Translations under genes and position numbers: made by a program
The notes under the pieces: generated by a model
Databases searched by the model: none
Told to the model about the DNA's origin: nothing
Seen by the model: only the letters and a program-made list of their open reading frames with translations
From: Capsulimonadaceae bacterium
GTDB lineage: Bacteria; Armatimonadota; Armatimonadia; Armatimonadales; Capsulimonadaceae
Assembly (NCBI GenBank): GCA_965246745.1
Contig: OZ251980.1
Location: 1,444,280 to 1,508,279, forward strand
Direction of reading: 5' to 3'
Length of the DNA stretch: 64,000 bases
Shown: positions 11,360 to 49,740 of the stretch, in pieces
Layout: each line of letters starts with the position of its first letter
How positions within the stretch are numbered: position 1 is the first letter of the stretch

Positions 11360-11408
11360 GGATGGTTCCCTCCCTGGGAAGCGAGCTGGGTGAATTGGGT
11401 GAACGAAG

Positions 11409-12569: not shown

Positions 12570-12572
12570 GGG

Positions 12573-12612: not shown

Positions 12613-12659
12613 AAATTATTATGCCAAGATGCAGGGCAAAAGTCAACTGTGCGGGAAGG

Positions 12660-14999: not shown

Positions 15000-15096
15000 C
15001 TGAGCGTCTGCTCAGGGCCAGTGTCGAAACACGGCGGAAAGTGGGTAAAATGAGGCTCAATGAGCCAAAAAGTGAGAACACTGCGGGAGGCCGACT

Positions 15097-15723: not shown

Positions 15724-15837
15724 CGTCGTCGCACACGCAGACAGGCTTGCGCCTGCGGGAAATTTCCGAACATCACCTGTGTTTCAGACGGTGATTTTTT
15801 ATAGCGTCACTGCCGGCGGGTGACGAGGACGACTGCC

Positions 15838-26071: not shown

Positions 26072-28294
26072 CTACTGTTTCGCCGCAATCCGCACCAGGG
26101 TCACCGACTGCGGGGGCAGGGCCAGCGAGCGCTTCAGCGGGGACGGCGGCAGCGCCGACACGCGGGCGGGGGCATTCTCACCGGGATTGTCGGCGGTCAA
26201 GCGCCACATCTTTACCGGGCCGGACGGCGAAAAGCCCTGCACGGTCAGCGGCGCGGTGATGGTCGCTTTTGCGGTTTTGTTGACCAAAATCAGCGTCAAG
26301 TCGCCCGTGCGGCTGTCGGTGGCGGCGTAGCACGACAGCTTGCCGGGGTCGGCGCTTGCCGCCGCGCAGGCGACATCGCCGAAGCCGGCCCCCTGCCCGT
26401 CGGCATTGCGGTACAGCTTAAACACTAAATAGGCCGGCGAGTTTTTGGGCGGGTACGCCCAGTAGTTCGCCAAAAAGATGTTTTCGCGCCCGAACACGCC
26501 CAGCGCGTCGGCGGCGGCGAGGCCGCCGCTGATGTCTTTTTCGCCGCCGAAGCTCCATTCGGTCAGCCCGATCCGTGTGCCGGGGTAGCCTGCCGCGATC
26601 CAGGTTTTGAGCCGGGGGATCAGCATGACCGGCTCGCCGATCCAGCTTTCATCGGGGTACGCCGGGTCGAACAAAGCGCGGGTGGAGCGCTCCCGCAAGG
26701 CCCGCGTCGCTTTGTCCGCCTGCCCGCCGTAGACCCCGCTGCCCTGCGGGTAGAAATGGACATCCAAAACATCGAGCGTGCGGGTCTTGGCGCGAAGGTC
26801 GTGGGCATGGACTTGTTTCAGAAACCACAGCAGAAACGGGTCGCCGCCGTGGGCTTTGCGGTCGGCAAACGAATGGAAATTGTCGTCGCCCCGGTCGAGC
26901 GCCGAATAATTGTACCCGGTCCAGCCCCACGACACCGGCCCGGTGACCAATGCCGCCGGGTCCACGGCTTTGGTCGCCGAAGCATAGTCCAAGTAATTAT
27001 GCAGGACATCGCCGTAGCCCATGCGGGCGGGGTGAACATCGGTGTGGGTCACATCCCACAAATCCGGCTCGTTGTCCATGGCGTAAAACTGCACGCCGCC
27101 GCTGCCCGCCGGGCCGAACGTCTTTTTCAGGTGCGCGATCCATTCGTCCTGGTAAACAATCTCGCCGGCCGCCGGGGGGGCGTCCGAAAACGGCGCGTTT
27201 TTGCGGGCGACGGACTGTACACTGGTGCGGCGGCGGTTTTCGGACGGATTGTACCCGGCGGTTTTGTCGGACGGCGGCACCCCGGCGGACTGGTGGCTGT
27301 TGTCGCTGTCGCGGGCCACCCAGCCCAGGGTCGGCACGGTCAGCAGCGTCGCCGCGCCCCGCGCCTTGTTGCCCTGCACAAACCTGTCGGCGGCGGACGA
27401 CGGCCCCGGCGGGACGGACGCGTCGGACGCGTACCGATTGCGGAATTCCCAGTCCCGCGCGGCGTTGTCGGCGTTGCCCTGCACCCAGTTGTAGCGCGAC
27501 TTGTCGTTGCCGCCCCAGCGGTTCACGGTGAGCTTCAGGTCGGCCAGGTAATCATCGGGCGCAAACGCCATGCCGTAAATATAGGGCGAGATCGGGTGCC
27601 GGCCCGCGCCGGCATTGACCGTGACGGCCACAGTCGCCGCCGTCGGCGCAGGCGGAATGGAGAAATCGGGCAGCAGCGAAATCTCGTCGAGAACCACCGG
27701 CTCGGACGCATCCTGCCGGGGCTGAAAAACAAGGCCGGTGATGGCCTCGCCGCCGCGCGGAGCGCCGAGGTCGGCCAGCGGCACCCGGAGCCGGTGCCAG
27801 CCGGGCAGATGATTGGGGTCCGGGGACAGATACCGGCTCATCGGCACGGCGTCGCCGAACTTGCCGCTGCTGTCTACCAAACACACTTTCGCGGTCGTGT
27901 CGCCCGCAACAAACGCCGTCAGGGCCGCGTACCCGCCGGTGCTGTACGGGTCATGGTGCAGGTACACCCCCCGGTTGCCGCCGGGCGAGAGCGAAATCGC
28001 AAACTGCCCCGTGTGGACAGGCGAAGTGGATTTCAGCGTGCGCGTTCCCCACGACCAGTCCTGCCAACCGTCGCCAAGCGCATCGGTGTAAACGGTCAGC
28101 GGCCCGTCGGCCCGCTCCGCCGGCAGCGCCGCCGCCATCGCCCCCTGCCCCTTGACCGCGTGATACAGCTGCGCCGCCGCCTGGTGCCAGCGCCCGTGCC
28201 CGCCGACCGCCCGCCGCCCCACCTCGGCCCCGGTTCCCAGCACCAGCACGCCGAGACCCAAACCCACCGCTACCGAAAACCGTTTTGCTGCCAT
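26072..28294 (-). CDS. Secreted glycoside hydrolase, GH-A clan (GH44-like) with additional beta-rich domains
   Basis: 740 aa with a signal peptide. It has a putative acid/base motif (YAMDNEPDLW) and a nucleophile motif (IGLTEWSFGG). Confidence 0.55.
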   Translation of the reverse strand: MAAKRFSVAVGLGLGVLVLGTGAEVGRRAVGGHGRWHQAAAQLYHAVKGQGAMAAALPAERADGPLTVYTDALGDGWQDWSWGTRTLKSTSPVHTGQFAISLSPGGNRGVYLHHDPYSTGGYAALTAFVAGDTTAKVCLVDSSGKFGDAVPMSRYLSPDPNHLPGWHRLRVPLADLGAPRGGEAITGLVFQPRQDASEPVVLDEISLLPDFSIPPAPTAATVAVTVNAGAGRHPISPYIYGMAFAPDDYLADLKLTVNRWGGNDKSRYNWVQGNADNAARDWEFRNRYASDASVPPGPSSAADRFVQGNKARGAATLLTVPTLGWVARDSDNSHQSAGVPPSDKTAGYNPSENRRRTSVQSVARKNAPFSDAPPAAGEIVYQDEWIAHLKKTFGPAGSGGVQFYAMDNEPDLWDVTHTDVHPARMGYGDVLHNYLDYASATKAVDPAALVTGPVSWGWTGYNYSALDRGDDNFHSFADRKAHGGDPFLLWFLKQVHAHDLRAKTRTLDVLDVHFYPQGSGVYGGQADKATRALRERSTRALFDPAYPDESWIGEPVMLIPRLKTWIAAGYPGTRIGLTEWSFGGEKDISGGLAAADALGVFGRENIFLANYWAYPPKNSPAYLVFKLYRNADGQGAGFGDVACAAASADPGKLSCYAATDSRTGDLTLILVNKTAKATITAPLTVQGFSPSGPVKMWRLTADNPGENAPARVSALPPSPLKRSLALPPQSVTLVRIAAKQ

Positions 28295-28488
28295 ACAGGC
28301 ATTTTACCACGACTCGCGCCGAAGTCGCACACGCTAAAAGACAGACTACGGCGTTTTTGGAGGCGGAAAGAGGCGTGTCTGCGCGGCAGCGACCGGGTAT
28401 CGGCCAGCGATTTGCAAAGCGCGGCGCTCCAACAGCCGGTCCGGGGCATTCAAGCCGAGGAGGCGAGAGGTCACTTCACCGATTTCGG

Positions 28489-29127
28489 TCAGCGGCACAA
28501 TGACCATGCCGTTCGGCTCGTCCAAGTGAAAAGCTGATGCCATAAATCGCGGCGCGGCGAGTAAAAGCGCGTTAATGTGCTGGTTTGCACCGCCAAAGAG
28601 CCGAGGTCACTGCCTTTGCTGCGATTACAGGGAAGACAGGTGTACGCAAGATTGTCTTTTTGCGTCAAGCCGCCATGCTTTTCGCTGACGATGTGGTCAA
28701 CTTCGCTGCTGAACAGCATGTCGTCTTCGTGGAGAAGGCAGTATTCGCAGAGAAAGTCCGCCCGCGCGATGACAAGGCGGCGCAATTCCGCCCGGATATA
28801 AGAAGTGCTCATTTGCCGGCCAAAAATTGCCGTGCCCGGTACGGGAATTATAGGCCACAAGACACACAGACACAATACGATACGGTTCTGATCACTTTTA
28901 AGCCGAGGCACTACTCGCAGCCATACCCACAGGTACATTCCGCCGACAGCCATGACACAGGCGGCGACAAGCGGCGAAAACCGAGAGAAATACCACAAAC
29001 AAAAGACGGTTAGCAGCAGGCAAACGATTAGGTCAATGATCTGCGGTTGGCGGCGGGCTGTGAGCAGCAGTTGCTCTGCCTCCTCAGAAACGAGCCACGA
29101 GCCTTTGCGGGCGGACAGCGGCATCAT
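28489..29127 (-). CDS. HNH endonuclease with an N-terminal transmembrane region
   Basis: The C-terminal region CEYCLLHEDDMLFSSEVDHIVSEKHGGLTQKDNLAYTCLPCNRSKG has an HNH signature. The gene lies in the low-GC segment next to the attC array. Confidence 0.7.
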   Translation of the reverse strand: MMPLSARKGSWLVSEEAEQLLLTARRQPQIIDLIVCLLLTVFCLWYFSRFSPLVAACVMAVGGMYLWVWLRVVPRLKSDQNRIVLCLCVLWPIIPVPGTAIFGRQMSTSYIRAELRRLVIARADFLCEYCLLHEDDMLFSSEVDHIVSEKHGGLTQKDNLAYTCLPCNRSKGSDLGSLAVQTSTLTRFYSPRRDLWHQLFTWTSRTAWSLCR

Positions 29128-29175
29128 TATCTCGGCTCCATCAAGCTGCTTTGTCCTTAACAGGCGTTCCGTCCA

Positions 29176-29278
29176 GCGGCCTAACGGCCAAGCTCACCTG
29201 CGACACCGCAAGCAACCGAAACGGCTGACGACGAAACAACGGCGCGGTGGCGTCGGCTGCAGCGCATTGTTAGGCCGC
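29176..29278. mobile_element. Integron attC site 1
   Basis: The inverse core (GCCTAAC) is at 29179-29185 and the core (GTTAGGC) at 29269-29275. Both sit within the ~103 bp imperfect palindrome GCGGCCTAACGG...GCATTGTTAGGCCGC. Confidence 0.8.
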
Positions 29279-29285
29279 AGACAGG

Positions 29286-29558
29286 TCAGCGCCGGTTACG
29301 CTGACGAGCGGTGGCATAACAGCCCGCGCAAAGATAGGTGATCTGTGCAAATGCTTCTGTCTCATCATCCCATTCTCCTCCTGCCGCAAGCAAACGTCTG
29401 TCGCATTCCCCACACCAGGCATCCGGGCAGGGATCATCACCTGTATCGTCTGCGTGGAAGAAGCCTAGCCCAACACCCCGGACTAGATGCTTACAGACAA
29501 AGGTAACATAGCTTTCCCCATGAACGGGGCAGATTACTAGCTTGGTTTTGTCACTCAT
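29286..29558 (-). CDS. Cys/His-rich small cassette protein, hypothetical
   Basis: 90 aa with CPVH, CKH and CPDAWCGEC...CAGC motifs. It is followed at its 3' end by attC-1. Confidence 0.5.
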   Translation of the reverse strand: MSDKTKLVICPVHGESYVTFVCKHLVRGVGLGFFHADDTGDDPCPDAWCGECDRRLLAAGGEWDDETEAFAQITYLCAGCYATARQRNRR

Positions 29559-29595
29559 CTTTGCAACGTTCCGCCGACTGCGATGGCTATGTTCT

Positions 29596-29699
29596 GCGGC
29601 CTAACGGCAGCGCTCACCGGCGACACCTGACTGCACAGCCTTCCGACCTTGCAGAGCAAAGAGACAGGTGGCGTCGGCTGCAACGCATTGTTAGGCCGC
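29596..29699. mobile_element. Integron attC site 2
   Basis: It reads GCGGCCTAACGGCAG...GCATTGTTAGGCCGC and overlaps the stop of the ankyrin gene. Confidence 0.8.
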
Positions 29700-30014
29700 A
29701 CCATGTTCGGCGAACGCCAATAATACCTCTTGATGAAGTAAACCGCGCGTCAAATCTTGTGCTAATTCCTGCGCTAACTCTTGTGCTGTTTTACCAAAAA
29801 GATCTCGTGCTGTCGTGTCCGCCCCAAACTCAAGCAATAAACGTACTAAGTTAGCCTGTCCCGTGTAAGCTGCTGCCATTAAAGGAGTAGAACCAAGAGG
29901 GTCTTTGCCGTTGACATCTGCTCCCTGTTCCAGTAGCTGACGTACAATCTCTAGGTGGCCCATGTTGACTTCGTCATGGAGTTTAGATATAAGCCACTTT
30001 TCATTTGCTTCCAT
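29691..30014 (-). CDS. Ankyrin-repeat protein (cassette ORF)
   Basis: The ANK repeats are GADVNGKDPLGSTPLMAAAYTGQANLVRLLLEFGAD. Confidence 0.8.
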   Translation of the reverse strand: MEANEKWLISKLHDEVNMGHLEIVRQLLEQGADVNGKDPLGSTPLMAAAYTGQANLVRLLLEFGADTTARDLFGKTAQELAQELAQDLTRGLLHQEVLLAFAEHGAA

Positions 30015-30035
30015 TTTTTGTTCCGGCTACGCGGT

Positions 30036-30137
30036 GCGGCCTAACGGCAAAGCTCAGCCGCGCTACCGCCTGCACAGCCACCCAATCTCGCTGAGGCAAT
30101 GGCGGCGGTGGCGTCGGCTGCAGCGCATTGTTGGGCC
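30036..30137. mobile_element. Integron attC site 3 (core variant GTTGGGC)
   Basis: It reads GCGGCCTAACGGCAAAG...GCATTGTTGGGCCG, with the same architecture as sites 1 and 2. Confidence 0.75.
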
Positions 30138-30180
30138 GTGACGGTTCCGCTCTCGAACGCTAGAAGTCCACCGACAAACG

Positions 30181-30603
30181 CTAGAAGTCAACCGACAGAT
30201 GAAACTGAGCCTGATGTTCTTGGGCCAAGACCAGCACACGTTCTAAGTCTGATAAGTCAGCCCTTAGCCCCTCGAAAAACTCTGCCCTCTCCCAACCACT
30301 CGGTGCGCTGACAAGAGAATTCGGATGAGAACGCACCCGCTCCAAAAGCGGACGTATAACCTCTAGCCCCTCTTCTGGGGCAAACCATTCTTCGGCGGGC
30401 ACGACAATTTCGTCTGGGTCTTGTCCCGTCTGGTCGGAGATGAAGCCTCTCAATTCGTCTGCATTGGTGCTGTTGAAACGGAGCAAAGGCTCGAAGAGGC
30501 TGCCTTCCTCAAAAAGAACGTCTGCCAATGCCTTTCCCGAAACCTCTGTGACATCAAATCCGGCTACTTCTTTATTAAAAACGGGATAGACACTGACACC
30601 CAT
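30181..30603 (-). CDS. acidic hypothetical protein (cassette ORF)
   Basis: About 140 aa from MGVSVYPVFNKEV..., Asp/Glu-rich. Its 3' end abuts attC-3. Confidence 0.45.
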   Translation of the reverse strand: MGVSVYPVFNKEVAGFDVTEVSGKALADVLFEEGSLFEPLLRFNSTNADELRGFISDQTGQDPDEIVVPAEEWFAPEEGLEVIRPLLERVRSHPNSLVSAPSGWERAEFFEGLRADLSDLERVLVLAQEHQAQFHLSVDF

Positions 30604-30991
30604 GATTTCCTCCTCGCGTTTCCGACGACTGTGCGGCACTTTTTCATCGGCCCAACAAGTATTTTACCGCGTTATGCCGTTGGACGTTTGACGTAAAATA
30701 CGCGCATTTGGCGGCAATTACCGCACTTTTTTCGCGGCTTGCGGCATAACACCGCACAGAGCGCATTTTTACCGCACCGCAATGTGTCAGCCTCGATTAA
30801 TTGCTTCACTGCTGTTGTATCACAATTCTTTTCTTTCCTACCCATCCTCATTTTTTGCCCACGCCCCCGAGTCACTTCGTTCCGCAGCAGAAAGGCGGCC
30901 ACTCTGCCTGCGGCATTGCTGCGTCTCTGACGCTTCGCCCCAGGGCGTAGACCTTTAGTTCCACGCTCTGGGGTGCCCTCCAATGTGCCCC

Positions 30992-33010
30992 CTATTTCTT
31001 GTCGGCGACTGCCGCCAAGGGATAGGCGGCTGCGCCGGCGGGCGGGGCGGCGGTCGGCTCGGTTTCGGCGAGGGCGTCGGCGATGGCTTGGAGGGCCTGC
31101 GGGTTCGACGCCAGGGCGTTGGCGATGGCGTCGGCCTGCGCGGGGCTGGTGCCGCTTTGGCCGGTCATCTTTTCAATCGCGGGCGTCAGAAGCCGCCCGA
31201 GATTGCCCAAGAGCGTGTCCACTTGGGACGCCCCGCTTGGAGAATGGCCGTTGCCGTTGCTGCCATCGGCGGGCGACGATGCGCCGCCGAGAAAGCCTTC
31301 GGCCATGGCGCGGATGCCGAAGCCTTTGGCCATGTTGTCCATCATCTTTTGCGCGGTTTCCGGCGTGCCGTACAGGGTCATGTTGCCTTTCGATAAAAAC
31401 AGGCCGAGGGCGCGGGCGAATTCCTGCTGGACTTCCTTGTCGGCCTGAATTCTCAGTTTTTCGATTTCGAGGCGGATGCCCGCTTCGGCGAACTCCTGGC
31501 GGTTCGCGAGCTGGTTGCGCTCGACATCCACCCGCGCCTGCTCGACCCCGACATTCTCGCGGGCCACTTCCACCGGGACAAGCTGCTGCGCCCGCTCGCC
31601 CCGCGCGACCAGCTCGCGCGACTGGGCTTCCGCCTGGGCAAGCTGAAGGCGAGCCTCGGCCTGCTTGGCGGCGGCTTCCTGCTCGCCCTGGGCATTGGTG
31701 ACGCGGGTAAACGCCGACACCTGCGCTTCGGTCTGCTGGCGGATTTTGTCGCGCTCGATTTCCTGACGCGCCGCGATCAGCTTTTTGTTGGCGTCGCGCT
31801 CGGCTTCGGCGATCTGGGTCACGGTGATGACCTCTTGAGTCGCTTTCTCCTGCGCGGCCTGGGCGATGAGGGCTTTTTCTTCGGCCCGCGCCCGCTCGGC
31901 TTCCTGGTTGGCGACAGCGATCTGCTTGAGGCGCTCGGCCAGCGCCACGGCCTGGTCGCGCCCGACGGCTGCCGTTTGGAGTTCCTGCTCACGGGCGATG
32001 GTGGCGGTCCGCACGGCTTTTTCCTGACCGACGCGGGCGACTTCGACGGCCTGCTGGCGGCCGATTTCGGCGGTCTCGACCGCCTGCTGCTTTTCAATCT
32101 GCGACGTTTCCACGGCCCGCTGCTGGGCGATCACCGCCTGCTGCGATTCTTGGTCTTTGCCGGCCCGGATTTTGGCAATTTCGGTGCTTTGGTTCGCTTC
32201 TGCCTCAGCCTGGTTGCGCTCCAAGTTCAGAATATACTGACGCGTGGTCACGTCCTGGTTTTTGCGGGCCTGCTCCGCCGCCCGCTCCAAGTTGTTGCGC
32301 TCGACCATCGCCGCTGCCGTGATTTCGGTGATTTTGCGCTTGCCCTGGGCATCGAACACGTTGTTGTCGGACAGCTCCGACGGGTCGGTCTGGTCCAGCT
32401 CGGAGATCGTAACGCTTTCCAAAAGCAGGCCGTTTGCTTCGAGGTCCGACTTGACATGCTCTTTGACCCGCTCGGCAAACTCGTCGCGCTTGGTGTGAAT
32501 CTCAAACAAGTACATCTGCGACGCAATGGCCCGCAGCGCGGACACCAGTTTCTCGCTGACCAGGTTCTCGACATTTTCGGCGTTGACCGAGTTGTCGCCG
32601 AGCGACCGGGCGGCGTTCAGAATATGCTCCCGATCCGCTTGGACGCGAATATAAAACTGAGCCAGAATATCCGACCGCAAATTGTCGTGGGTAATCAGCG
32701 CATTCGGCCCGTGCGGGTTGACTCCGAGCTTCATCGTCCGCAGATTGACTTCGGTAATCCGGTGGAAGATCGGAATGACGAGCGCCCCGCCGTCGAGCAC
32801 GACCCGCGAGCCGCCCTGCCCGGTCATCACAAACGCCTGGTCCGCCGACGTTTTCTTATACAGCGAAGTCCAGACCGTGATGACCAGCCCCAGCAGAAAC
32901 AAAATCAGGCCGGCGACGCCGAGCACGGCCTTGCCGGCGAACCCAATCACCGGCAGAAACAGCGGGCCGACCATCAAGGCCGCACCGGCGATCAGCAAAG
33001 CAGCTCCCAT
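30992..33010 (-). CDS. Flotillin / SPFH (band 7) family protein, YqiK-like
   Basis: 672 aa. It has an N-terminal TM segment, an SPFH domain, and a long E/A/Q-rich coiled coil (…AEAEANQSTEIAKIRAGKDQESQQAVIAQQRAVETSQIEKQQAVETAEI…). GC is high, so it looks native. Confidence 0.85.
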   Translation of the reverse strand: MGAALLIAGAALMVGPLFLPVIGFAGKAVLGVAGLILFLLGLVITVWTSLYKKTSADQAFVMTGQGGSRVVLDGGALVIPIFHRITEVNLRTMKLGVNPHGPNALITHDNLRSDILAQFYIRVQADREHILNAARSLGDNSVNAENVENLVSEKLVSALRAIASQMYLFEIHTKRDEFAERVKEHVKSDLEANGLLLESVTISELDQTDPSELSDNNVFDAQGKRKITEITAAAMVERNNLERAAEQARKNQDVTTRQYILNLERNQAEAEANQSTEIAKIRAGKDQESQQAVIAQQRAVETSQIEKQQAVETAEIGRQQAVEVARVGQEKAVRTATIAREQELQTAAVGRDQAVALAERLKQIAVANQEAERARAEEKALIAQAAQEKATQEVITVTQIAEAERDANKKLIAARQEIERDKIRQQTEAQVSAFTRVTNAQGEQEAAAKQAEARLQLAQAEAQSRELVARGERAQQLVPVEVARENVGVEQARVDVERNQLANRQEFAEAGIRLEIEKLRIQADKEVQQEFARALGLFLSKGNMTLYGTPETAQKMMDNMAKGFGIRAMAEGFLGGASSPADGSNGNGHSPSGASQVDTLLGNLGRLLTPAIEKMTGQSGTSPAQADAIANALASNPQALQAIADALAETEPTAAPPAGAAAYPLAAVADKK

Positions 33011-35593: not shown

Positions 35594-36328
35594 TTACTCT
35601 GGTTGCCTCTGTGTTATGAGAAAGTCATCGGTAAGCTCTTCAATGGGTAGATAGGCTCTTATGATAGCAAAAGCGTCTGGTATAGTAATCTGCCCATCTA
35701 TACGAAAATGCTTCGTGTAACCTGTTCCCTTAATTTTGTTCCCGTCTGCAAACAGACGCAGTTTGTCTTCGGGGCTAAAAGATATAGTAGCCCCGTCCAG
35801 ATGAATAAATGTAGTCGCGTCAGGTGTCAATCGACCATGTACATAAAAAACCTCTGGCGATTGTGCAATATCTTCCCAAGCTTCTAATTCAACTGCGCTA
35901 TCTTTCCGGTCTACTGCGATGTGAACGAGGAGATCTGCAACAAAACCAGTAGCGCTAAATCGCTCAGGCATAGGAACCTGAAACCTAGCCTTTATCAGTT
36001 TTTGCAGGCGTACCTCTTGTAGAGCACGCTCAAAAGGCACTCCATACAATGTCGCACGGCCCATGATTGGAGGAAAAGCCTTTACGCTTATAGCTGCCGC
36101 TTCCCATAGGTCAAGCTTTTGGACAAGAATATCTACGACTCTGTTGATATACGGGACAGGGTAGACCTGAAAATCGCTTCGATGCTTTAAGTGTAGCGAA
36201 TAATCTGCGGCCTGCTGCTGATGCACAATCCTTAGATCATTGGCCTGGACAAGTCCATCGTGATTTAGAAGTTCTGAAAGTGTGACAGCATTTTGTCTTC
36301 GCATTCTTTGTTGCTCTATCTTATTCAT
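35594..36328 (-). CDS. hypothetical protein (244 aa) with no recognisable domain; last gene of the AT-rich three-gene operon
   Basis: GC is about 42-45%, against a ~69% host. It shares the minus strand with the two ORFs upstream at short spacing. Confidence 0.5.
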   Translation of the reverse strand: MNKIEQQRMRRQNAVTLSELLNHDGLVQANDLRIVHQQQAADYSLHLKHRSDFQVYPVPYINRVVDILVQKLDLWEAAAISVKAFPPIMGRATLYGVPFERALQEVRLQKLIKARFQVPMPERFSATGFVADLLVHIAVDRKDSAVELEAWEDIAQSPEVFYVHGRLTPDATTFIHLDGATISFSPEDKLRLFADGNKIKGTGYTKHFRIDGQITIPDAFAIIRAYLPIEELTDDFLITQRQPE

Positions 36329-36439
36329 ATCGATTAGGATTTACACGGTTGAAGCCAAACCAAGAGATTTTAATGCCTTGTTCTCGCGATTCTACTCAAA
36401 GATCGCATGGAAACATCCAGCGAAGCAAGCATTGGAGTA

Positions 36440-36730
36440 TTAGACCCAGAAGAATAACTTTATGATAAGATCACAGAAGGCCTGTTTACGAGCCAGCTTG
36501 TCGGCTTCGATTTTTCTTAGGCGCTGACTTTCCTCTTCCGCAATGCGAGATTCTTCTCTAACCGCGTCTTTGTACGCCCGGTAAGCAGGATCGGCTGCTT
36601 CCCGTTCCTCCTCTTTTCTTATCTCAGCTTCCCGGTAGGCTATTTCACTTGCTCTCACGCTGTCGCGGATAGCGTTTTCAGTTAATGAAACGGCTTTCTT
36701 AATTGCCCATTTTGCAATAGGTCCTATCAT
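36440..36730 (-). CDS. small hypothetical protein (96 aa): amphipathic charged helix plus a C-terminal hydrophobic tail (FCDLIIKLFFWV)
   Basis: It is the middle gene of the AT-rich operon. Confidence 0.4.
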   Translation of the reverse strand: MIGPIAKWAIKKAVSLTENAIRDSVRASEIAYREAEIRKEEEREAADPAYRAYKDAVREESRIAEEESQRLRKIEADKLARKQAFCDLIIKLFFWV

Positions 36731-36757
36731 TAGCAGGTCTCGCTTTCTATTGAAGCG

Positions 36758-37969
36758 TTAAGGTAGTGTCTGAGGTATGAGCAGAAATATATTTGCAGCC
36801 TGCCCTTTAGGGGCATTTTTAGGCCGAAGTTGTTGCCACTCGTTTAGGCTGATGCCTGTTTGTTGAAGTGCCGCAACTTCGTCCCGGTATGCTTCAAACC
36901 GCCTCATGTCCTCAATAACGCCTTCTGCCTTCGTGAGCAACTCCGGCAAAGTTTGGGCGTAATACTCTTGCTTCTTCACTCTATATTCTTTTATTTTCTT
37001 TCTTGTCCTGTTCACTGCATCCTTATTGGACGCTACTTCAATGTTCCAGTATGTAACCTTGGCAAAGGCGGAAAAGCCTGTCTGGGCCTGGGCCTGAGCT
37101 TGATTATTTTTGCTTGAGATAAGTATATTCTCAACCCTCTCCAATTCCGCTTGTTGTTTCTTGCAGATATCTGAGTCGGATGCCTTCACAGATGACATTT
37201 CAAGTCTTCGGACATCTTTTTCCAAAGAATCTTCAAGCCGCCATATCCTAGCCACGAGGTCTGTGCATTGAGATAAGTCTATACACCATAGATGATTTGT
37301 ATCGAAAGCTGTATATTTCTTCTTCAAGTAGGCATGCACAAGTGTTCTCATGGTTTCAGAATACTGCTCTAGCTTTGATGTAGCAAGAACCATTTCGCCT
37401 AGTTCTATATGGCATCTAATTTCGGCAGTATAAGCGAGGAACAATGTCGAAATCAGCTTGTCTGCAATCTCACTGCCGGCAGCGATCTGGGCATCGCATT
37501 CTGCCTCGAAATAATGCTGTGCCTCCAACATACGATTGACCGCGTGAGTTGCAGTAATTCGCTTTGTGTCCGGGCTTTGCGTCATCATTGCATCGTTCGC
37601 TTGCCGAATTGCGGCCACAAAGTTTCCATAGAAACTCAAATCAAGTTTTCGATCTATCTGGGTTAAGAGAGCATTTTGTTCGGAGATGGACGTTTCCAAA
37701 AGCTTGATGCGGTTGAGAATGATTGTAAAGCCCGTCACAGAAACACCAAGATTAAGCACACCTACGACATCGCCAAACTTCAACAATCGCGAGGCTGAAC
37801 TAAGCATCTGTCCTGGTGAGACCTGAGTAAAGTCAGTTTCGCGTAGCCAGGCAACAACTGATTTAGAGTCAACTTCACGAATGACACCGCCAACTCTCTC
37901 ATAGTTGCCATTGTCTAAGCCATTCGCAATCCAATCGGGTATCTGAAAAACTGCTTCAACTGTATTCAT
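36758..37969 (-). CDS. hypothetical protein (403 aa), mostly alpha-helical, with one N-proximal hydrophobic segment (VVGVLNLGVSVTGFTIIL); first gene of the AT-rich operon
   Basis: GC is about 42%. No family motif was recognised. Confidence 0.5.
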   Translation of the reverse strand: MNTVEAVFQIPDWIANGLDNGNYERVGGVIREVDSKSVVAWLRETDFTQVSPGQMLSSASRLLKFGDVVGVLNLGVSVTGFTIILNRIKLLETSISEQNALLTQIDRKLDLSFYGNFVAAIRQANDAMMTQSPDTKRITATHAVNRMLEAQHYFEAECDAQIAAGSEIADKLISTLFLAYTAEIRCHIELGEMVLATSKLEQYSETMRTLVHAYLKKKYTAFDTNHLWCIDLSQCTDLVARIWRLEDSLEKDVRRLEMSSVKASDSDICKKQQAELERVENILISSKNNQAQAQAQTGFSAFAKVTYWNIEVASNKDAVNRTRKKIKEYRVKKQEYYAQTLPELLTKAEGVIEDMRRFEAYRDEVAALQQTGISLNEWQQLRPKNAPKGQAANIFLLIPQTLP

Positions 37970-38187
37970 CTTATTCTCCTTGATCTACCTTACACCATTA
38001 ACACTACTGCCGCAGAATGAAAAGCGGAAACTCAAACCCGTTTTTCTGCCTTGATCTTCGCATACCGTTTCGCCGCCCGCTTGCTATTTTCCTGCAAACA
38101 TTTTCGCCACAAATCCTAAATCCTTGCCCGCGAAGGCGGCCACTCGGCGCTTCGCCCCACAGCGTAGAACTTCAGTTCCACGCCCCA

Positions 38188-38216
38188 TTGACAACCCTAT
38201 CGCTTCTTTGCGATAA
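38188..38216 (+). promoter_or_regulatory. sigma70-like promoter (TTGACA, 18 bp spacer, GATAAT) upstream of the XRE gene
   Basis: The sequence is ttgacaaccctatcgcttctttgcgataatg. Confidence 0.5.
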
Positions 38217-38222
38217 TGCCCC

Positions 38223-38525
38223 ATGCCGCACACTACCAGCGACGCCGCCGAAATCATGGACATTGAGTTCGGCGCTGACCCCAACTATCAGAAGATTCGC
38301 GCCGAGCAGCGGATCAAGTCTCAGGCGGCGCAGGCGATCTATGACGCCCGCACTGCCGCCGGGCTGTCCCAAACCCAGCTTGCTAAGATTGCCGGGACGA
38401 CGCAATCCGTAATCTCGCGCTTGGAAGACGGCGACTATGACCGGCATTCGCTGGCGACACTGGGACGGATCGCCGCCGCGCTGGGTCGCCGGGTGGAAGT
38501 GCTTTTTGTTCCCATCTTGCCGTGA
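38223..38525 (+). CDS. XRE-family helix-turn-helix protein (HigA/antitoxin-like)
   Basis: The HTH is LSQTQLAKIAGTTQSVISRLEDG. Confidence 0.7.
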   Translation: MPHTTSDAAEIMDIEFGADPNYQKIRAEQRIKSQAAQAIYDARTAAGLSQTQLAKIAGTTQSVISRLEDGDYDRHSLATLGRIAAALGRRVEVLFVPILP

Positions 38526-38609
38526 CGCCGACTGCGTGGTACAATAAATATTATTGTGAGTGCTTCTTTCGCGATAAAAAGCTTGCCAGAGAATAGGAGA
38601 TGAACAAGA

Positions 38610-39410
38610 GTGGTTTACGAATGCGAAAAATGCAATGTGCCGCTACCGCCAGGAGTAAGAGCTTGCCCAAATTGCGGGGAAGCTTTTGATGATGTAGTGC
38701 CGGCTGATGCTGAAGTTCCTCAGCGTGGTTTTCGTCCCAGCAATGCTTCGGCAGGTTCAACACAATATCAAGCGCCAACGCCGCCGATGCCTCAGCCTCC
38801 AAATCCTATTCCGGTTTATGCCGCCCCCGCAACCACTACCCCTGCTCTGGCACGGGGATGGGTGATGGTCCTTACATTCCTCTTCTGCTTCCCGCTGTTT
38901 ATTATCGGTGTTTGGCAACGGCCCGATTGGTCGCGTGGCGCAAAGGCTTTGGCGACTGTTGCTTTCGTTATCATGCTATGTATAATTGCCGGCATCAACA
39001 ATGCTACAAGCAATAATACTTCTCCATCCTCATCTTCAGCGCCGTTGATGCCAACGCAACACAGCCCAAGTTCAGCTAAGTACAGTCCACCTGCGGCACC
39101 GGACACAGCACCGTCTCCTGCACCTGACGCCAGTGATACAGAATCAAAGCCGGATTTAGAAGTAATAGATCACAAGTCGGTCTCAGAGGAATATGGGCGC
39201 TCAGTTGTTGGCACAGTTCGCAACAACACGGACCATAATTACGGTTACGCCCAAGTAGAGATCAATCTCTATGACAAAAGCGGAAGTCAAGTCGGGTCTA
39301 CGGTCGCCAACATTAACAACTTAGCACCCCATAGCCTCTGGAAATTCAAAGCTCCTATCTTAGAAGATAGTGCAGTTCGCTTTGAGATTAAAGATGTAAC
39401 AGGGTTTTAG
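38610..39410 (+). CDS. zinc-ribbon, TM segment, FxLYD-domain protein
   Basis: The N-terminal C-x2-C…C-x2-C ribbon is CEKCNVPLPPGVRACPNCGE. It has one TM segment and a Ser/Pro-rich linker. The C-terminal region YAQVEINLYDKSGSQVG carries the FxLYD motif. Confidence 0.55.
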   Translation: MVYECEKCNVPLPPGVRACPNCGEAFDDVVPADAEVPQRGFRPSNASAGSTQYQAPTPPMPQPPNPIPVYAAPATTTPALARGWVMVLTFLFCFPLFIIGVWQRPDWSRGAKALATVAFVIMLCIIAGINNATSNNTSPSSSSAPLMPTQHSPSSAKYSPPAAPDTAPSPAPDASDTESKPDLEVIDHKSVSEEYGRSVVGTVRNNTDHNYGYAQVEINLYDKSGSQVGSTVANINNLAPHSLWKFKAPILEDSAVRFEIKDVTGF

Positions 39411-42164: not shown

Positions 42165-42237
42165 GCCGAAGCGATACGCGCACACAGACAGGGGCGGGCC
42201 AAACGGCCCGCCCCTGTTTTCTTTTTAGGAGATCATT

Positions 42238-42548
42238 GTGTCTGTTACTCTATGGGAGCCAGGCCCGAATTATGTTTGGGTCGAGCCGGAAAACGTAGAC
42301 AAAGTGACGGAAGACGACTACCGCTACGGCGTCATCTGGGCAAACCCGCCGCGTGTGAGCGGAACCCCGTGTTTCACTGGACCCGCGTCCCCATCCGCAA
42401 TCTTTGGAATTATTTGGAGAGCGGAGAAACCACGGCCGCCTTCTTGGACGACTTCGAGGGCGTCACGCAGGAGCAGGGGTTGGCGGTTCTTCTGCTGGCC
42501 CGTACCAAGCTGCTCGAAGGGTTGCCGCCGGATACCTGCCACGAGTAA
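42238..42548 (+). pseudogene. DUF433-family gene disrupted by a -1 frameshift near 42377
   Basis: Frame 1 reads …ANPPRVSGTPCFTG and then runs off. Frame 2 continues (G)TRVPIRNLWNYLESGETTAAFLDDFEGVTQEQGLAVL. Joined, they give the DUF433 consensus (C.G.P...GTR.PV..IL..L..G.s.eei...yp.lt.e.i..al.ya). Confidence 0.6.
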
Positions 42549-42663: not shown

Positions 42664-45288
42664 ATGCTGCTGAAAGAAACATTGCTAGACTCTGGCTGGA
42701 ACCTTGCTCACACCGTGACGTTGCCGTCGCGTGAGAAACAAACCTTTGAGAGCAGCGGGCTGGCTTTATCCGAAGTGACCCACCGCTTTTTGGCAGCATC
42801 AAAGACTGGGCTTTACCTGCACCAGCGGGAGGCTGTGAGCAGGTTTCTTGACGGGTCGAATGTCTGCATGACAACCGGCACGGCTTCGGGGAAAAGTCTG
42901 CCGTTTTATCTTGCCGGCATTGATCAACTGGCGCGAAATCCCAGTTCCAAAATTATCGCTGTTTATCCGATGAAGGCGCTCGGCTATGAGCAGGAAGAGC
43001 GCTGGAAGCAGGCGCTGGCGCAAGCCGGACTGACCGCACACGTCGGGCGCATTGACGGTCAAGTCTCGACAAAAGCACGGCCGGAGATTTTACGCCGCTC
43101 GAGCGTTGTGATTTTGACGCCGGATGTCATTCACGCATGGCTCTTGAACAATCTCGGCGACAAAGCGGTCTTGACGTTTCTGAGGCAGGTCGCGCTGATG
43201 ATTGTTGATGAAGTCCACAGCTACACCGGCGTATTCGGCTCCAATTCCGCATTTTTGTTCCGTCGGCTTCAGCACGCGATGACTATGCTGCGAAGCAAGC
43301 CGAGCTATATCTGCGCGTCGGCGACAATCGCAAATCCGCAGGCGCATTTGGCAAAGCTGTTCGGCGCGGAGTTCGCGCTGATCGGCTCTGATTCGGATAC
43401 CTCGCCTCGCCATGCCGTTGAAGTTCAGCTCGCTACTCCTCGCCCAGAGGCTGATATGCTGTCGCAAGTGACCGATCTCCTACAGCAGATTGCCGAAAAA
43501 TCAGATTCCAAGTTTATTGCGTTTGTAGACAGCCGCAAGCAGGCGGAGCATATTTCTTCAATCCTGGCGCGAAGTCAGGACCAGTCACAGGACGAGGAGC
43601 AGGAGACGGAAGCGCATTTCGACTTTGACTTTCTGCGACGGCTGAACGTGTTGCCGTTCCGCTCGGGCTTTGAGGAACATGACCGCTCTATTATCCAGGA
43701 GCGGCTGAAAAGCGGCAGCCTGCGCGGCGTGGTCAGCACAAGCGCTTTGGAACTCGGCATGGACATTTCCCAACTTGGGACGGGAATTCTTGTCGGCGTT
43801 CCACGCTCCTCGACCAGCCTGTTTCAGCGAATCGGACGCATCGGGCGTCATGGCTCCGGCACGGTGGTCATTGTCAACACCGGAACCATCTATGATGAAG
43901 CTATTTTCAGAAACCCGCAGGAGCTGTTAAACCGGCCGATGGCGGAAAGCTCGCTGTACCTAGAAAACACGCGAATTCAATATATTCATGCGCTCTGTCT
44001 TGCCCGTCAGGGCGGCGAACATGATAAAGTACGAAGCGCGGTCAGCGGGGAAGAAACGACGGAGATGGAAACAGAAGTCGCCTGGCCGGCCGGCTTTCTC
44101 GACATCTGCCGCCGTGAGCGGCTCGGCGAAGTGCCTGCCGATTTGCAGAATATGAAAGCAGAAGCCGGCGAGGAGCCAAACCATACCTTTCCGCTTCGGG
44201 ATGTTGAGAGTCAATTTAAGATTGAGTTCAAGCAAGGCCCGGAACAGCGTCAGCTCGGCGCGGTTTCGCACGGCCAAATGATGCGCGAAGCCTATCCCGG
44301 CGCAATTTATTACTACATCACTAAGCCTTACCGTATCTATAGTGTTGACATGCGAAGCCGCGTGATCCGCGCTCGCGCCGAAAAGCACTACACGACAAAC
44401 CCTCAGAACTTGCCTACCTGTGTCTTCCCGAACTTATCTGAAGGAAACATACACCGCGCCAAAAGCCATGATACACTTTCAGCGGTCGAGTGCAACTTGC
44501 AAATTCGTGAAGCCGTCTGCGGATACAAAGAGCGGCGTGGGCCGAACAAGGCTTTCCACGGATACCCCATACTATCAACGACTTCGGGAATTTCGTTCGG
44601 GCTAGATCGGTTTGTTCGTAACTATTTCACGACCGGCATTATCGTGACGCATCCTGCACTGAATTGGGACGGGGTTGACTGCAATTTGATGGCAAGCCTG
44701 ATTTATGAAGGGTTTTTGATGCTTGTTCCGTTTGAGCGTCAAGATATGGGCGTCGCTGTAGATAAACATCGAACCCCGCGCGAGGGAATCGAGCAAGGCA
44801 GCAAATTTATTGCTCTGCACGATCAGACCTACGGCAGCCTGCGCCTTTCGGGAAGGCTTTTGGAAGAGCAGTGGCTTAGGGGGACACTGGCGAAGGCAGT
44901 GGAGCTTTGCCGAGAACAAGAAGTCACGTCGGAACACCCAAACACGCTGGCAGCGCTTGAAGCAGTGTCCGCGTCGGCAAACCAAGCGGAAACCGCTTCT
45001 GTGTTCGGCACAGATAGTGCATCGGCGTCCGCACCGGAAGATTGTGCGCTGGTCATTTTGCCCGGCAGCCGGGGGCTAAAGATAGATACCGGTGCCGTGG
45101 AAGAGTTTGAGGTAGAAGATGTGTTTTATCATCCTTCGTTCAACGGATTGAGCTACCGGGGCAGACGACATTCCTTGAAGGGAGAAACGAGCAAAAATGT
45201 CGTTCCTATCTCTGCGCTAAAAGAAATCCCTGGAGAGAGCCTGATGGGCTACTACGATTTCAACACTGGAGAAATCGCGCCTATATAG
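42664..45288 (+). CDS. DEAD/DEAH-box superfamily 2 helicase, YprA/MrfA-like (probable C-terminal Zn-binding/DUF1998-like region)
   Basis: Motif I (TGTASGKSL), motif II (DEVH), motif III (SAT) and motif VI (QRIGRIGRHG) are all present. The C-terminal 300 aa carries scattered Cys residues. GC is about 50%, against a ~69% host. Confidence 0.75.
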   Translation: MLLKETLLDSGWNLAHTVTLPSREKQTFESSGLALSEVTHRFLAASKTGLYLHQREAVSRFLDGSNVCMTTGTASGKSLPFYLAGIDQLARNPSSKIIAVYPMKALGYEQEERWKQALAQAGLTAHVGRIDGQVSTKARPEILRRSSVVILTPDVIHAWLLNNLGDKAVLTFLRQVALMIVDEVHSYTGVFGSNSAFLFRRLQHAMTMLRSKPSYICASATIANPQAHLAKLFGAEFALIGSDSDTSPRHAVEVQLATPRPEADMLSQVTDLLQQIAEKSDSKFIAFVDSRKQAEHISSILARSQDQSQDEEQETEAHFDFDFLRRLNVLPFRSGFEEHDRSIIQERLKSGSLRGVVSTSALELGMDISQLGTGILVGVPRSSTSLFQRIGRIGRHGSGTVVIVNTGTIYDEAIFRNPQELLNRPMAESSLYLENTRIQYIHALCLARQGGEHDKVRSAVSGEETTEMETEVAWPAGFLDICRRERLGEVPADLQNMKAEAGEEPNHTFPLRDVESQFKIEFKQGPEQRQLGAVSHGQMMREAYPGAIYYYITKPYRIYSVDMRSRVIRARAEKHYTTNPQNLPTCVFPNLSEGNIHRAKSHDTLSAVECNLQIREAVCGYKERRGPNKAFHGYPILSTTSGISFGLDRFVRNYFTTGIIVTHPALNWDGVDCNLMASLIYEGFLMLVPFERQDMGVAVDKHRTPREGIEQGSKFIALHDQTYGSLRLSGRLLEEQWLRGTLAKAVELCREQEVTSEHPNTLAALEAVSASANQAETASVFGTDSASASAPEDCALVILPGSRGLKIDTGAVEEFEVEDVFYHPSFNGLSYRGRRHSLKGETSKNVVPISALKEIPGESLMGYYDFNTGEIAPI

Positions 45289-47799: not shown

Positions 47800-47846
47800 C
47801 GGCACAAAAACACCCGGCCCCTGATGATTGGGGCCGGGTGTTTCTA
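47800..47846 (-). terminator. Rho-independent terminator (hairpin cacccggcccc…ggggccgggtg followed by a T-tract on the minus strand)
   Basis: It lies downstream of the PEP-CTERM gene. Confidence 0.55.
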
Positions 47847-47865
47847 TGGCACAAGCCGGGAACGA

Positions 47866-48567
47866 CTAAGCGGCAGCGCTGCGCTTGCGGCGAGCCGAGA
47901 CAGCCCCGCCGAGGCCGAGGGCCAGCAGGAGGGCGAACGAGACGGTGGTGGAGGCTTCGGGCACGGGGTCAATCGCCGGGCCGACGGTGCCGGAAACGCC
48001 GGAAACGCGCAGGCCGGTGGAGCTTTGGCCGTCGTCGAGCACCACAAAGTCCAGCGTGTTGAGGCCGGCGTGGAACCCGGAGCCGATAGAAAACGCGCTG
48101 TAGGCGTTGTTGGCGTTCGACACGTTGCCGGTCGAAAGGCCGTTGATCAAGATGTCGGTGCCGAAGTTGTCGGTGGCCCAGAAGCCCGACAGCGACGCGG
48201 CGGCGGGGTCCAGGCCGGTCAGGTCGAACGTTGTCTGGTAGTCATAATAGCCGGCCACGCCGGCGGTTTGCAGGAACGGGTCGTTGGTCGGGGCGATCCA
48301 CGCCGAATCGGGCGCGTCGGCCAGCCAGCCGTTGGAAACCAGCGGAAAGCCGTAGGCGGAGGTCAGCACTTGCAGGCTGCCGGACGTGCCGGCGGGATGC
48401 TGGGTCAGGGTGTAATGCGGGTCGCCGAGCGTACCGCTGGGCAGGGACGCCCCGGCGGAGTCAACGCCGGTGCTGTAGACCGTAAAGGTCTGCGCCGAGG
48501 CGGCGTGGGCGCTCAGCAGGCCGAGAGCGGCGAAAGCGAGCAGGGTCGGGCGATAAGTATTATTCAT
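47866..48567 (-). CDS. PEP-CTERM sorting-domain secreted protein
   Basis: It has a signal peptide. The C-terminal VPEASTTVSFALLLALGLGGAVSARRKR is the PEP-CTERM motif, followed by a TM segment and a basic tail. Confidence 0.8.
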   Translation of the reverse strand: MNNTYRPTLLAFAALGLLSAHAASAQTFTVYSTGVDSAGASLPSGTLGDPHYTLTQHPAGTSGSLQVLTSAYGFPLVSNGWLADAPDSAWIAPTNDPFLQTAGVAGYYDYQTTFDLTGLDPAAASLSGFWATDNFGTDILINGLSTGNVSNANNAYSAFSIGSGFHAGLNTLDFVVLDDGQSSTGLRVSGVSGTVGPAIDPVPEASTTVSFALLLALGLGGAVSARRKRSAAA

Positions 48568-49017
48568 AACGGCATGTCCTTTGTATGCGAAAGCCCGGCA
48601 GAGTTTGTGCGAACGTCACCGTATTATACTGCACAAACCATGCCGAAGGCAAGAGCAGGCAGGCGGCGGAGCGAATAACCCGGTATCTTTACCGGAGAAA
48701 AGAGCGTTTCGGGCGGTTCCGGCGCAGAAAAGCCGGTATTTGTCGGGGTAACTGTTTAGCGCCCCCTGCCGATAATCTTGAATGTCTGACACGCCAATCG
48801 CTGCTCGACAAAGGCAAACCTGGGGAAACGCAGGGACGCAAAGCACAGGGCCTTCGCATGTAAACAATCACCGTGCATGGCAGCCTGGCCTCCGAAAGTG
48901 CGACAGCATGAATATACACGCAACGCGCCCGGTCCCCTTCTAGAAAGGACCGGGCGTTTTGGCGTCCGCGTCCGCATCGCCCTACAGCCCGGTAATCGCC
49001 GTGCCGATAACAACGGC

Positions 49018-49740
49018 ATGAAAGTTCTCCGGCACCCGCGTCATGCCGACAAAATCATGCGGATTGAAGGAACGCTGGCGGTCGGCGGGGTCGGCGGCGG
49101 CGTTTTGCTGTGGACCCAGGCCGCCCATTTCGGCGGCTACGCGTTCGCTGCCGCTGCATTCTTAAGCCTCGGCGGGGTGCAGGCCGGAGTCCGCGCCCTC
49201 AGAAACCACAACCGCTGGCACCGGGGCACGAGCGGGGAAGACGCGGTGCTCCAGACCCTGCGCGGCCTGCCGGACGGCTACACGGCGGTCGCCAATTTTG
49301 TCGCGCCGGGCACCCGGCAGGGCGACATGGACCTGCTGGTGCTCGGCCCCGCCGGGGTGCTCGTGATTGAAGTCAAATCGTACACAGGCCGCTTCGCCTG
49401 CGCGGGCGACCTGTGGTTCACGGTGGAGGCAGACGGCGTCCGCCGCCCCTTGAAAGGCAGCGTCTCGCGCCAGCTTAAACGCGCCGGCAAGACCGCCGGG
49501 CATTATTTGGTGGACTGCGACGTAAGCATCCCTGTCCACACCGCCGCCGTGTTCCGCGCCGGAGCCGAGCTGGAGCTGACCCGCCCGACGGTTCCCATCG
49601 TCCGCGAAGACGCCCTCCTCGCCCATATTTTGGCGCTGCCCCCCGCCCCCGTCCCCTGCGCCCTCTCCGAAATCGAGCCGCTGTTCGCCCCTGACCCGCC
49701 CGCCCGCCGCCTCGCCCTGCCCCTGCTGCCGTCGCGCTAG
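49018..49740 (+). CDS. NERD (nuclease-related domain) protein with N-terminal TM helices
   Basis: The NERD motif region is DLLVLGPAGVLVIEVKSYTG. Confidence 0.7.
   Translation: MKVLRHPRHADKIMRIEGTLAVGGVGGGVLLWTQAAHFGGYAFAAAAFLSLGGVQAGVRALRNHNRWHRGTSGEDAVLQTLRGLPDGYTAVANFVAPGTRQGDMDLLVLGPAGVLVIEVKSYTGRFACAGDLWFTVEADGVRRPLKGSVSRQLKRAGKTAGHYLVDCDVSIPVHTAAVFRAGAELELTRPTVPIVREDALLAHILALPPAPVPCALSEIEPLFAPDPPARRLALPLLPSR

Follow-up and report, generated by a model that had tools for sequence, protein, structure and literature searches.

A Cys-less, Tudor-tailed, stand-alone clade of YprA-like helicases with a member in a Capsulimonadaceae genome

The subject of this analysis is a helicase gene in a 64,000-nucleotide stretch of contig OZ251980.1 from a Capsulimonadaceae bacterium, referred to here as the window. 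Its 874-amino-acid (aa) product belongs to a Cys-less, Tudor-tailed, stand-alone clade of YprA-like helicases, in which the characteristic fold is kept while the zinc cluster and the Pfam signature that go with it are lost. The clade is rare and horizontally transferred. The gene itself is intact, functional, and under strong purifying selection.

A YprA/MrfA-type fold without its zinc cluster

The open reading frame (ORF) occupies positions 42664..45288 on the + strand and encodes, from an ATG start, 874 residues plus a stop, as given by the ORF listing and its translation. A previous reading made from the letters of the window (the sequence-only reading) had reported an 874-aa ORF with four helicase motifs, and each of these is found: motif I (TGTASGKS, residues 71-78, 42874-42897), motif II (DEVH, residues 182-185, 43207-43218), motif III (SAT, residues 219-221, 43318-43326), and motif VI (QRIGRIGR, residues 388-395, 43825-43848). 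The protein thus has a superfamily 2 (SF2) DExH core, whose ATPase motifs are invariant across 34 relatives (alignment A1). Pfam recognizes DEAD at residues 53-224 (E 1.3e-22) and Helicase_C at 272-397 (E 4e-14), and no other family. Compared with an 89%-identical syntenic orthologue on a related metagenomic contig (L001), the ratio of nonsynonymous to synonymous substitution rates (dN/dS) is 0.038 overall and at or below 0.05 for each domain, including the Cys-less drum and the tail described below; the linker between these two is relaxed, at 0.21. No convincing sigma-70-like promoter was found upstream of the gene in a promoter scan, the consensus of which may not be that of the host.

The best sequence match in the PDB is MrfA/YprA of B. 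subtilis (E 7e-47, 163 bits), which aligns over residues 46-447 only. Among NCBIfam models the best is TIGR03817, which we take to be the SftH-type model of the 'YprA-only' helicases of Actinobacteria, such as M. smegmatis MSMEG_6160. Its score of 242 bits is far short of the 874-bit cutoff, and the match covers query residues 15-625 and profile positions 2-585 of 742, leaving the DUF1998 part unmatched. Structure prediction extends the relationship. An AlphaFold2 model built from a 34-sequence alignment (pLDDT 81, pTM 0.72) aligns with MrfA (6znp_A) in Foldseek over 820 columns, with an E-value of 4e-44 and a TM-score of 0.78 normalized to the 748-residue target.

This alignment is nearly full length, and the model contains a helix and a strand ahead of RecA1 (by DSSP), as well as the complete canopy of the YprA/MrfA family, namely winged helix (WH), OB-like barrel, connector (CON), and MZB domain, with the order of secondary structure elements in agreement (Foldseek, DSSP). 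RecA1 leads directly into RecA2 in the model, with no large inserted domain, and the one additional element is a disordered, acidic low-confidence loop of ~20 residues in RecA2, at residues 303-325 (pLDDT <50 at 308-321). The WH-like region, whose position matches the WH of MrfA, holds the invariant residues C445 and C482. Conserved motifs mark both the OB/CON segment (FPLRDVESQF, REAYPGAxYYY, ECNLQIRE, and KERRGPN in alignment A1) and the MZB-like drum (RNYFTTG, PFERxD, and YDQTYGSLRLS). The next structural matches, Lhr, Hel308, and Brr2, reach TM-scores of ~0.4-0.47 over the core only. At the level of the predicted fold, the helicase is therefore of the YprA/MrfA type, and the sequence-only reading, which had called it a YprA/MrfA-like SF2 enzyme, is upheld by the top PDB match, the top (sub-cutoff) NCBIfam model, and a fold that agrees over almost the whole chain.

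The C-terminal region is where the protein departs from its family. The sequence-only reading had linked this region to DUF1998/MZB and had proposed a profile check, which we ran with Pfam. The PF09369 (MZB/DUF1998) model gives nothing, either for the whole protein at E<=1 or for the C-terminal module at E<=10, and the 4-Cys cluster is absent, so that the expected signature is lacking. A weak MZB match appears in 4 of 20 relatives (best E 0.006 in Pfam), and a profile of the C-terminal module searched against PDB sequences failed to retrieve MrfA. With the sequence searches null, the homology of this module to MrfA rests on the predicted fold and on the weak MZB matches in those four relatives.

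The C-terminal region does contain several cysteines, as previously stated (C482, C586, C610, C619, C673, C749, and C794), but none of them forms a CxxC pair. The only invariant cysteines in the family are C68, C445, and C482, and no conserved Cys occurs at residues 650-790, whether the relatives compared are 45-89% or 30-35% identical. The more distant group, which includes WP_012642891 of Thermomicrobium roseum, has the Cys-less MZB domain and the tail in common with the closer relatives. Judged from these alignments, the 4-Cys zinc cluster is missing clade-wide. In the model, a helix at 737-751 and another at 759-772 are joined by a coil, with no Cys in between; this helix-coil-helix (737-772) probably takes the position equivalent to the zinc knuckle and replaces it. 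The 4-Cys cluster characterizes the whole YprA family and has been lost in Dpd (Bell et al., 10.1101/2025.09.15.676423). The present clade would be a further case of such loss, in a compact stand-alone protein, and no accession of a clade member was found in the accessible part of the supplementary tables of that study.

Beyond the drum, the chain ends in a tail of ~80 aa, a conserved SH3/Tudor-like barrel with the motifs PGSxG, EEFxVE, YRG, IPGES, and YxYxTGE. The sequence-only reading had overlooked this extra domain. Domain boundaries in Table 1 follow the MrfA scheme of Roske et al. (PMC7797055), with the edge of the N-terminal region (NTR) and the OB/CON border approximate.

Table 1. Coordinates of the helicase gene, its domains, and the adjoining islet features in the window
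Feature	Residues	Positions	Strand	Remarks
Helicase gene, complete		42664..45288	+	Database protein P0001 100% identical
NTR	1-45	42664..42798	+	Helix 3-9, strand 13-20 in model; probable counterpart of MrfA NTR
RecA1	46-250	42799..43413	+	Motifs I, II, III; Pfam DEAD
RecA2	251-430	43414..43953	+	Motif VI; Pfam Helicase_C
Helical/WH-like region	431-510	43954..44193	+	Helices 436-446, 452-459, 478-487, 492-501
OB-like barrel and long-stranded connector (CON)	511-575 (OB), 576-640 (CON)	44194..44583	+	Strands 517-633
MZB-like drum	641-775	44584..44988	+	Fold match to MrfA; without 4-Cys zinc site
Variable linker	776-793		+	Joins drum to C-terminal barrel
Extra C-terminal SH3/Tudor/KOW-like beta-barrel	794-874	45043..45285	+	
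DUF433 antitoxin-like pseudogene, frameshifted		42304..42548	+	Directly upstream of helicase; tblastn with intact L001 orthologue
Strong terminator-like hairpin after ErpA		42186..42219	+	15-bp stem, 11 GC pairs, T-rich tail; consensus match only

Distribution, genomic islet, and gene neighborhoods

When residues 510-874 were searched with phmmer against 1.84 billion cluster representatives, 349 matches came back at E<=1e-3, 251 of them at E<=1e-10, and the canonical DUF1998 helicases were not reached. Among the 150 matches listed, the module is always C-terminal in full-length proteins of ~790-1220 aa, and the shorter entries look like fragments. Of 185,579 species, each represented by one genome in a pattern-based scan, ~37 carry a copy at >=37% identity, a count limited by the search patterns used. 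The carriers belong to Chloroflexota, Bacillota, Deinococcota (one Deinococcus species), Pseudomonadota, Myxococcota, Bacteroidota, Armatimonadota, KSB1, WOR-3, and others, and the closest match in the scan is 53% identical to the helicase. In database searches, the matches with 50-55% identity belong to Thermodesulfovibrio, Chloroflexia, Armatimonadota, Bacillota, Cloacimonas, and archaeal metagenome-assembled genomes (MAGs); more broadly, identity lies at 45-55% across Nitrospirota, Chloroflexota, Armatimonadota, Bacillota, Cloacimonadota, and archaeal MAGs. The GC content of the gene falls 5-15 points under that of its flanks in many loci, and 11 points under in the syntenic relative. No full-length copy was found in 50,697 phage records, and 72,556 plasmids yielded a single full-length match, on a Thermomicrobium roseum megaplasmid. 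This rare, patchy, low-GC pattern is what would be expected of an accessory gene exchanged horizontally, not of a core gene.

Within the window, the helicase gene has 54.3% GC and a GC content at third codon positions (GC3) of 0.606. The window mean is 63.8% GC, and the flanking host-like genes (ErpA, S9 peptidase, NERD, and GlnE) have 65-70% GC and a GC3 of 0.80-0.85. The sequence-only reading had claimed a contrast of ~50% against ~69%, correct in direction and overstated in size. It had also placed the gene at the boundary of an island. The helicase gene is indeed low in GC, but it is not contiguous with the larger low-GC block at 35.6-39.4 kb, from which it is kept apart by ~3.2 kb of host-like genes, a GltD-like oxidoreductase and ErpA, with a GC3 of 0.79-0.85. 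Owing to this spacer, the helicase and the DUF433 remnant make up a separate small islet, bordered by ErpA and the S9 peptidase. The terminator-like hairpin after ErpA, a consensus match only, may mark the upstream edge of the islet.

The neighboring DUF433 gene is frameshifted, as the sequence-only reading had it: tblastn with the intact L001 orthologue breaks into two frames, at 42304-42393 and 42363-42548. Gene order in L001 is ErpA, DUF433, a 119-aa gene, an SbmA-like ABC transporter, the helicase, and a convergent S9 peptidase. In the corresponding stretch of L001 (7401-9874), the 119-aa partner gene of DUF433 and the transporter, a 569-aa SbmA/BacA-like protein, lie between DUF433 and the helicase. 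The window has neither gene and its DUF433 copy has decayed, which suggests that the islet is eroding. Synonymous divergence between the window helicase and the L001 copy (10001-12625) is saturated, with a dS of ~1.7, and the two genes have a GC3 of 0.61 and 0.52, respectively, against ~0.75-0.85 in their neighbors. Since GC3 remains low at saturated dS, amelioration toward host composition has not occurred; this hints at selection favoring lower GC, or else at repeated replacement at the same site by gene conversion or transfer.

To look for partners, crude ORF calls lying no more than 6 kb or two genes from the helicase were clustered by BLAST and phmmer at ~85 loci. No conserved partner emerged from these loci, where generic ABC ATPases recurred along with two lineage-specific partners, and neither an MrfB-like exonuclease nor DrmB/C, DruH, or a BrxHII/PglX pair was recurrent. 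The sequence-only reading had seen no MrfB or DrmB/C partner in the window, an observation that holds there and across the homologous loci. Pfam counts are flat over 134 flanking ORFs. PADLOC matches among these neighbors include BrxC (E=0), BrxB, Cas3, Cas6, and a type III methyltransferase, as well as a type I specificity subunit, NERD+UvrD, MkoA, and AriA.

Individual contexts vary and are often defense islands or mobile elements, rather than the conserved housekeeping contexts that the sequence-only reading had named among the grounds for giving up a defense role. A type III restriction-modification (R-M) system, UvrD-PDDEXK, and RadC accompany the helicase in a locus flanked by serine recombinases (L002), and nucleoside deoxyribosyltransferase, NERD-UvrD, UvrD, and PDDEXK genes lie near it in another (L004). 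Further copies are found in an island with several methyltransferases, PDDEXK_11, HSDR_N, and AAA_15 (L086), near a methyltransferase and UvrD (L090), near IS21, a recombinase, and transposases (L092), beside an integrase followed by BrxA/B/C (L093), and near Cas6 (L007). The densest defense island is that of a Bacillota MAG (L091, 4768-18610), in which the helicase is accompanied by a PhD/PIN pair, a PDDEXK_1 protein with UvrD_C remnants, a 1022-aa ResIII/RE_endonuc protein (a type III restriction enzyme), a bAvd-like protein, and SIR2_2 followed by DUF87 (HerA-like). On the contig of P0044 (JGI 3300047160, genes 415-16628), an unknown 537-aa protein, SbcD, SbcC, a 76-aa protein, and a GmrSD_N protein precede a terminal helicase; this string abuts TniQ, TniB, and TnsA/B-like genes and therefore looks like the defense cargo of a Tn7-like transposon. 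The window copy and L001 have no more than a toxin-antitoxin remnant close by.

The two lineage-specific partners are confined to sub-branches of the clade, and neither is present in the window. One is a protein of 153-154 aa with no Pfam match (L090, 2186-2650; L092, 7543-8004), 69% identical between the two loci, the stop of whose gene overlaps the start codon of helicase variants of ~985 aa; it may be a dedicated partner in that sub-branch. The other, a protein of 340-396 aa, adjoins the helicase in four proteobacterial loci (L023, 12613-13650; L076, 8783-9805; L080, 8790-9851; L083, 8627-9817), downstream of it in Hydrogenophaga and upstream in the three alphaproteobacterial loci. A Pfam match to HATPase_c (GHKL-type) is significant for one of the four copies.

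Other features of the window were noted alongside the islet. The low-GC block at 35594-39410 (GC 0.45-0.57, GC3 0.38-0.55) holds five ORFs of 244, 96, 403, 131, and 266 aa, of which the last has an FxLYD domain and an N-terminal zinc ribbon and the others have no Pfam match. A second low-GC patch at 28285-30983 contains an HNH endonuclease (28489-29127), an ankyrin-repeat protein (29691-30014), and three small family-less ORFs, and adjoins a 672-aa SPFH/Band-7 protein (30992-33010). Downstream of the islet, a 284-aa ORF with no family match and an atypical GC3 of 0.60 (47824-48678) is followed by a 287-aa NERD-domain protein with a host-like GC3 of 0.80 (48877-49740). Both of these ORFs were considered as partners of the helicase and set aside, as they have no counterpart near any homologue or in L001. 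The convergent S9 peptidase, 11 bp downstream, was likewise rejected as a functional partner because it is conserved in the close relative only.

Possible roles of the helicase

We give an even chance to the reading that the helicase is a conflict-related accessory gene, free of nuclease activity, that would act against foreign DNA. Such a role is favored by its rarity, mobility, composition, and neighborhoods, by the recruitment of YprA helicases into immunity, and by the ability of SftH to replace DruE. The proposal of the sequence-only reading, a stand-alone defense helicase, is plausible on grounds of association: the DUF1998 HMM signal is missing, but the contexts are varied, so the idea keeps its plausibility.

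By homology with MrfA and SftH, single-stranded DNA would be bound in the cleft across RecA1 and RecA2, the OB-CON canopy would roll over it about the drum domain, and ATP hydrolysis would drive movement in the 3'-to-5' direction, unwinding duplex or stripping proteins. The drum (MZB) domain of this clade may no longer need zinc, and the SH3/Tudor-like tail could act as an adaptor that contacts either a partner protein or some feature of nucleic acids. The helicase might in this way interfere with replication or recombination intermediates of invading DNA, acting alone or passing its substrates to nucleases encoded elsewhere. In the model and the alignment, the structural elements for an MrfA-type cycle are all present and conserved, bar the zinc knuckle; the DNA substrate, the 3'-5' polarity, the role of the tail, and the immune function are what we infer by analogy. 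A bolder version, which we consider unlikely, makes the clade a single-protein, nuclease-free immune or anti-plasmid system, in which the tail would sense an invader cue, such as a phage protein, an SSB-coated intermediate, or a modified-DNA feature, and translocation alone would abort foreign replication.

Several observations weigh against a conflict-related role. The helicase carries neither a nuclease nor any other effector domain, and it lacks a conserved partner that could act as sensor or effector. Members of the Druantia/ARMADA/BRIGADE/TALON lineage carry a BrxA-like domain after RecA1 as well as zinc beta-barrel and MarR-like inserts in RecA2 (Bell et al. 2025), and the BrxA-like, zinc-module, and MarR-like inserts are all absent from the helicase model. 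PADLOC-DB v2 gives no full-length match; SngC, BrxHI, DruE, DpdJ, DrmA, and Cas3 cover the RecA core (~50-400) only, and the PADLOC check that the sequence-only reading had proposed therefore returns no system-level match beyond a generic helicase core. MrfA and the sub-threshold TIGR03817 score highest, which places the nearest relatives on the 'repair' side and not with DrmA, DpdJ, or DruE. Retention at the same site in a diverged relative under strong purifying selection fits a housekeeping-like function equally well. Defense or mobile-element contexts, at 9 of ~15 annotated neighborhoods, are suggestive of such a role, but they come from a small, non-random sample with no matched control, and two loci (L087 and L089) show plain housekeeping contexts.

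The strongest competing account, which we regard as a real if somewhat doubtful possibility, is that the protein serves DNA repair or recombination as an accessory 'YprA-only' helicase, in the manner of mycobacterial SftH. Such a 3'-5' translocase would clear lesions, crosslink intermediates, or stalled forks with the general nucleases of the cell, and its presence in defense islands would reflect the nature of these regions as sinks for horizontally acquired DNA. Scores of 242 bits for TIGR03817 (sub-cutoff) and 163 bits for MrfA, against 31-77 bits for DpdJ, DruE, and DrmA, agree with this account, as do the compact MrfA-like architecture without defense-lineage inserts, the lack of an effector in the helicase, the housekeeping settings of the two loci just named, and stable syntenic retention at a dN/dS of 0.04. 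Partnerless YprA proteins, moreover, fall on the repair branch in the analysis of Bell et al. (10.1101/2025.09.15.676423). A core repair function, however, would not be expected to show so rare and very patchy a distribution. The composition of the gene is persistently atypical, some sub-branches have lineage-specific coupled partners, and R-M, BREX, CRISPR, SIR2-HerA, GmrSD, or mobile elements occur in more than half of the annotated contexts.

That several copies lie within elements bounded by recombinases, integrases, or transposases, or beside Tn7-like TnsAB/TniB/TniQ genes, and that transfer across phyla is evident, could also indicate a selfish mobile-element gene involved in replication, transposition, or establishment of its carrier, perhaps as an anti-defense factor. 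We find this quite improbable: the elements that carry the gene are unrelated in type, and it therefore acts like cargo and not like core machinery. No recombinase lies beside the window copy or its 89%-identical orthologue, both of which have a fixed place between ErpA and an S9 peptidase; phages yield no full-length match, and the single full-length plasmid match is on a megaplasmid. Least probable of all, in our view, is an RNA helicase or another housekeeping SF2 enzyme. The generic DEAD and Helicase_C matches would allow it, and several records label relatives as 'ATP-dependent RNA helicase SrmB', yet the SrmB, DbpA, and CshA models, whose cutoffs lie above 500 bits, reach just 24-28. The fold of the whole chain is that of the DNA helicase MrfA, with Brr2/Ski2-type enzymes aligning over the core only, and DEVH is followed by YTGVFGSN, as in YprA. 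Among these accounts, a conflict-related accessory role is the one we favor.

Comparison with known systems

Lhr and Hel308 are second-tier PDB matches that resemble the helicase in their RecA1-RecA2-WH core and in the logic of a 3'-5' DNA helicase. They align over ~460-530 columns of the core only (TM-score 0.41-0.47) and lack the OB-CON-drum canopy.

MrfA (PDB 6ZNP/6ZNQ/6ZNS; PMC7797055) is much closer. It has the same SF2 DExH core and a similar YprA-type segment after motif II, and its WH, OB, CON, and drum, probably along with its N-terminal helix-strand, follow in the same order as in the helicase. The helicase differs in being ~20% identical, in lacking the 4-Cys zinc site, and in its additional 80-aa tail. 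MrfAB also includes an adjacent or fused MrfB, a DEDDh exonuclease, which is not seen here; the neighbors in the window are the DUF433 pseudogene and the S9 peptidase. The SftH-type helicases provide the top curated model, TIGR03817, and are likewise stand-alone and partnerless, while the helicase lies far below the 874-bit cutoff of that model, has no Cys cluster, and has gained a tail. SftH is a monomeric 3'-5' DNA helicase that can replace DruE alongside DruH (PMC13316683).

DISARM, Dpd, Druantia, and ARMADA are all built around YprA helicases (10.1101/2025.09.15.676423). The helicase shares with the defense branch (DrmA/DrmB, DpdJ, DruE, ArmC, and TALON) the scaffold of the superfamily and a frequent location in defense islands. 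It differs in its weak scores, which are 77 bits for DruE, 69-72 for DpdJ, and 31-42 for DrmA, and in its size of 874 aa, compared with 1100-2100 aa in that branch. This size leaves no room for inserts of the Druantia/ARMADA type. A TALON/ARMADA-like identity, prompted by a bias toward Chloroflexota and by NERD and TPR neighbors, was considered and rejected, as the BrxA, zinc-module, MarR, and RNase H inserts are lacking. The partner sets of defense systems, namely DruH, BrxHII-like with PglX-like, and NERD+TPR-CSD+TBP, are not conserved beside the helicase. In comparison with DISARM, DrmA models match the core only, and the canopy of the helicase is fused rather than split off into DrmB, a separate DUF1998 protein; in the window and at the ~85 loci, no DrmB, DrmC (PLD), or methyltransferase is conserved near it. 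In Dpd, DpdJ has lost the 4-Cys cluster (Bell et al.), as has the present clade.

DISARM, Dpd, Druantia, and ARMADA share a YprA motor whose own part in immunity is still being worked out. The present clade travels alone through defense islands, integrative elements, and Tn7-like cargo with the full MrfA canopy kept, and it offers a minimal test case for whether the drum needs zinc, for what a stand-alone YprA motor does in vivo, and for where the boundary between repair and defense YprA proteins lies, a boundary that the replacement of DruE by SftH suggests is porous. Were the helicase an ordinary accessory repair enzyme, it would be a modest addition to the taxonomy of the family. Were single-protein immunity true, it would represent a minimal form of YprA-based defense machines such as DISARM, Druantia, and ARMADA.

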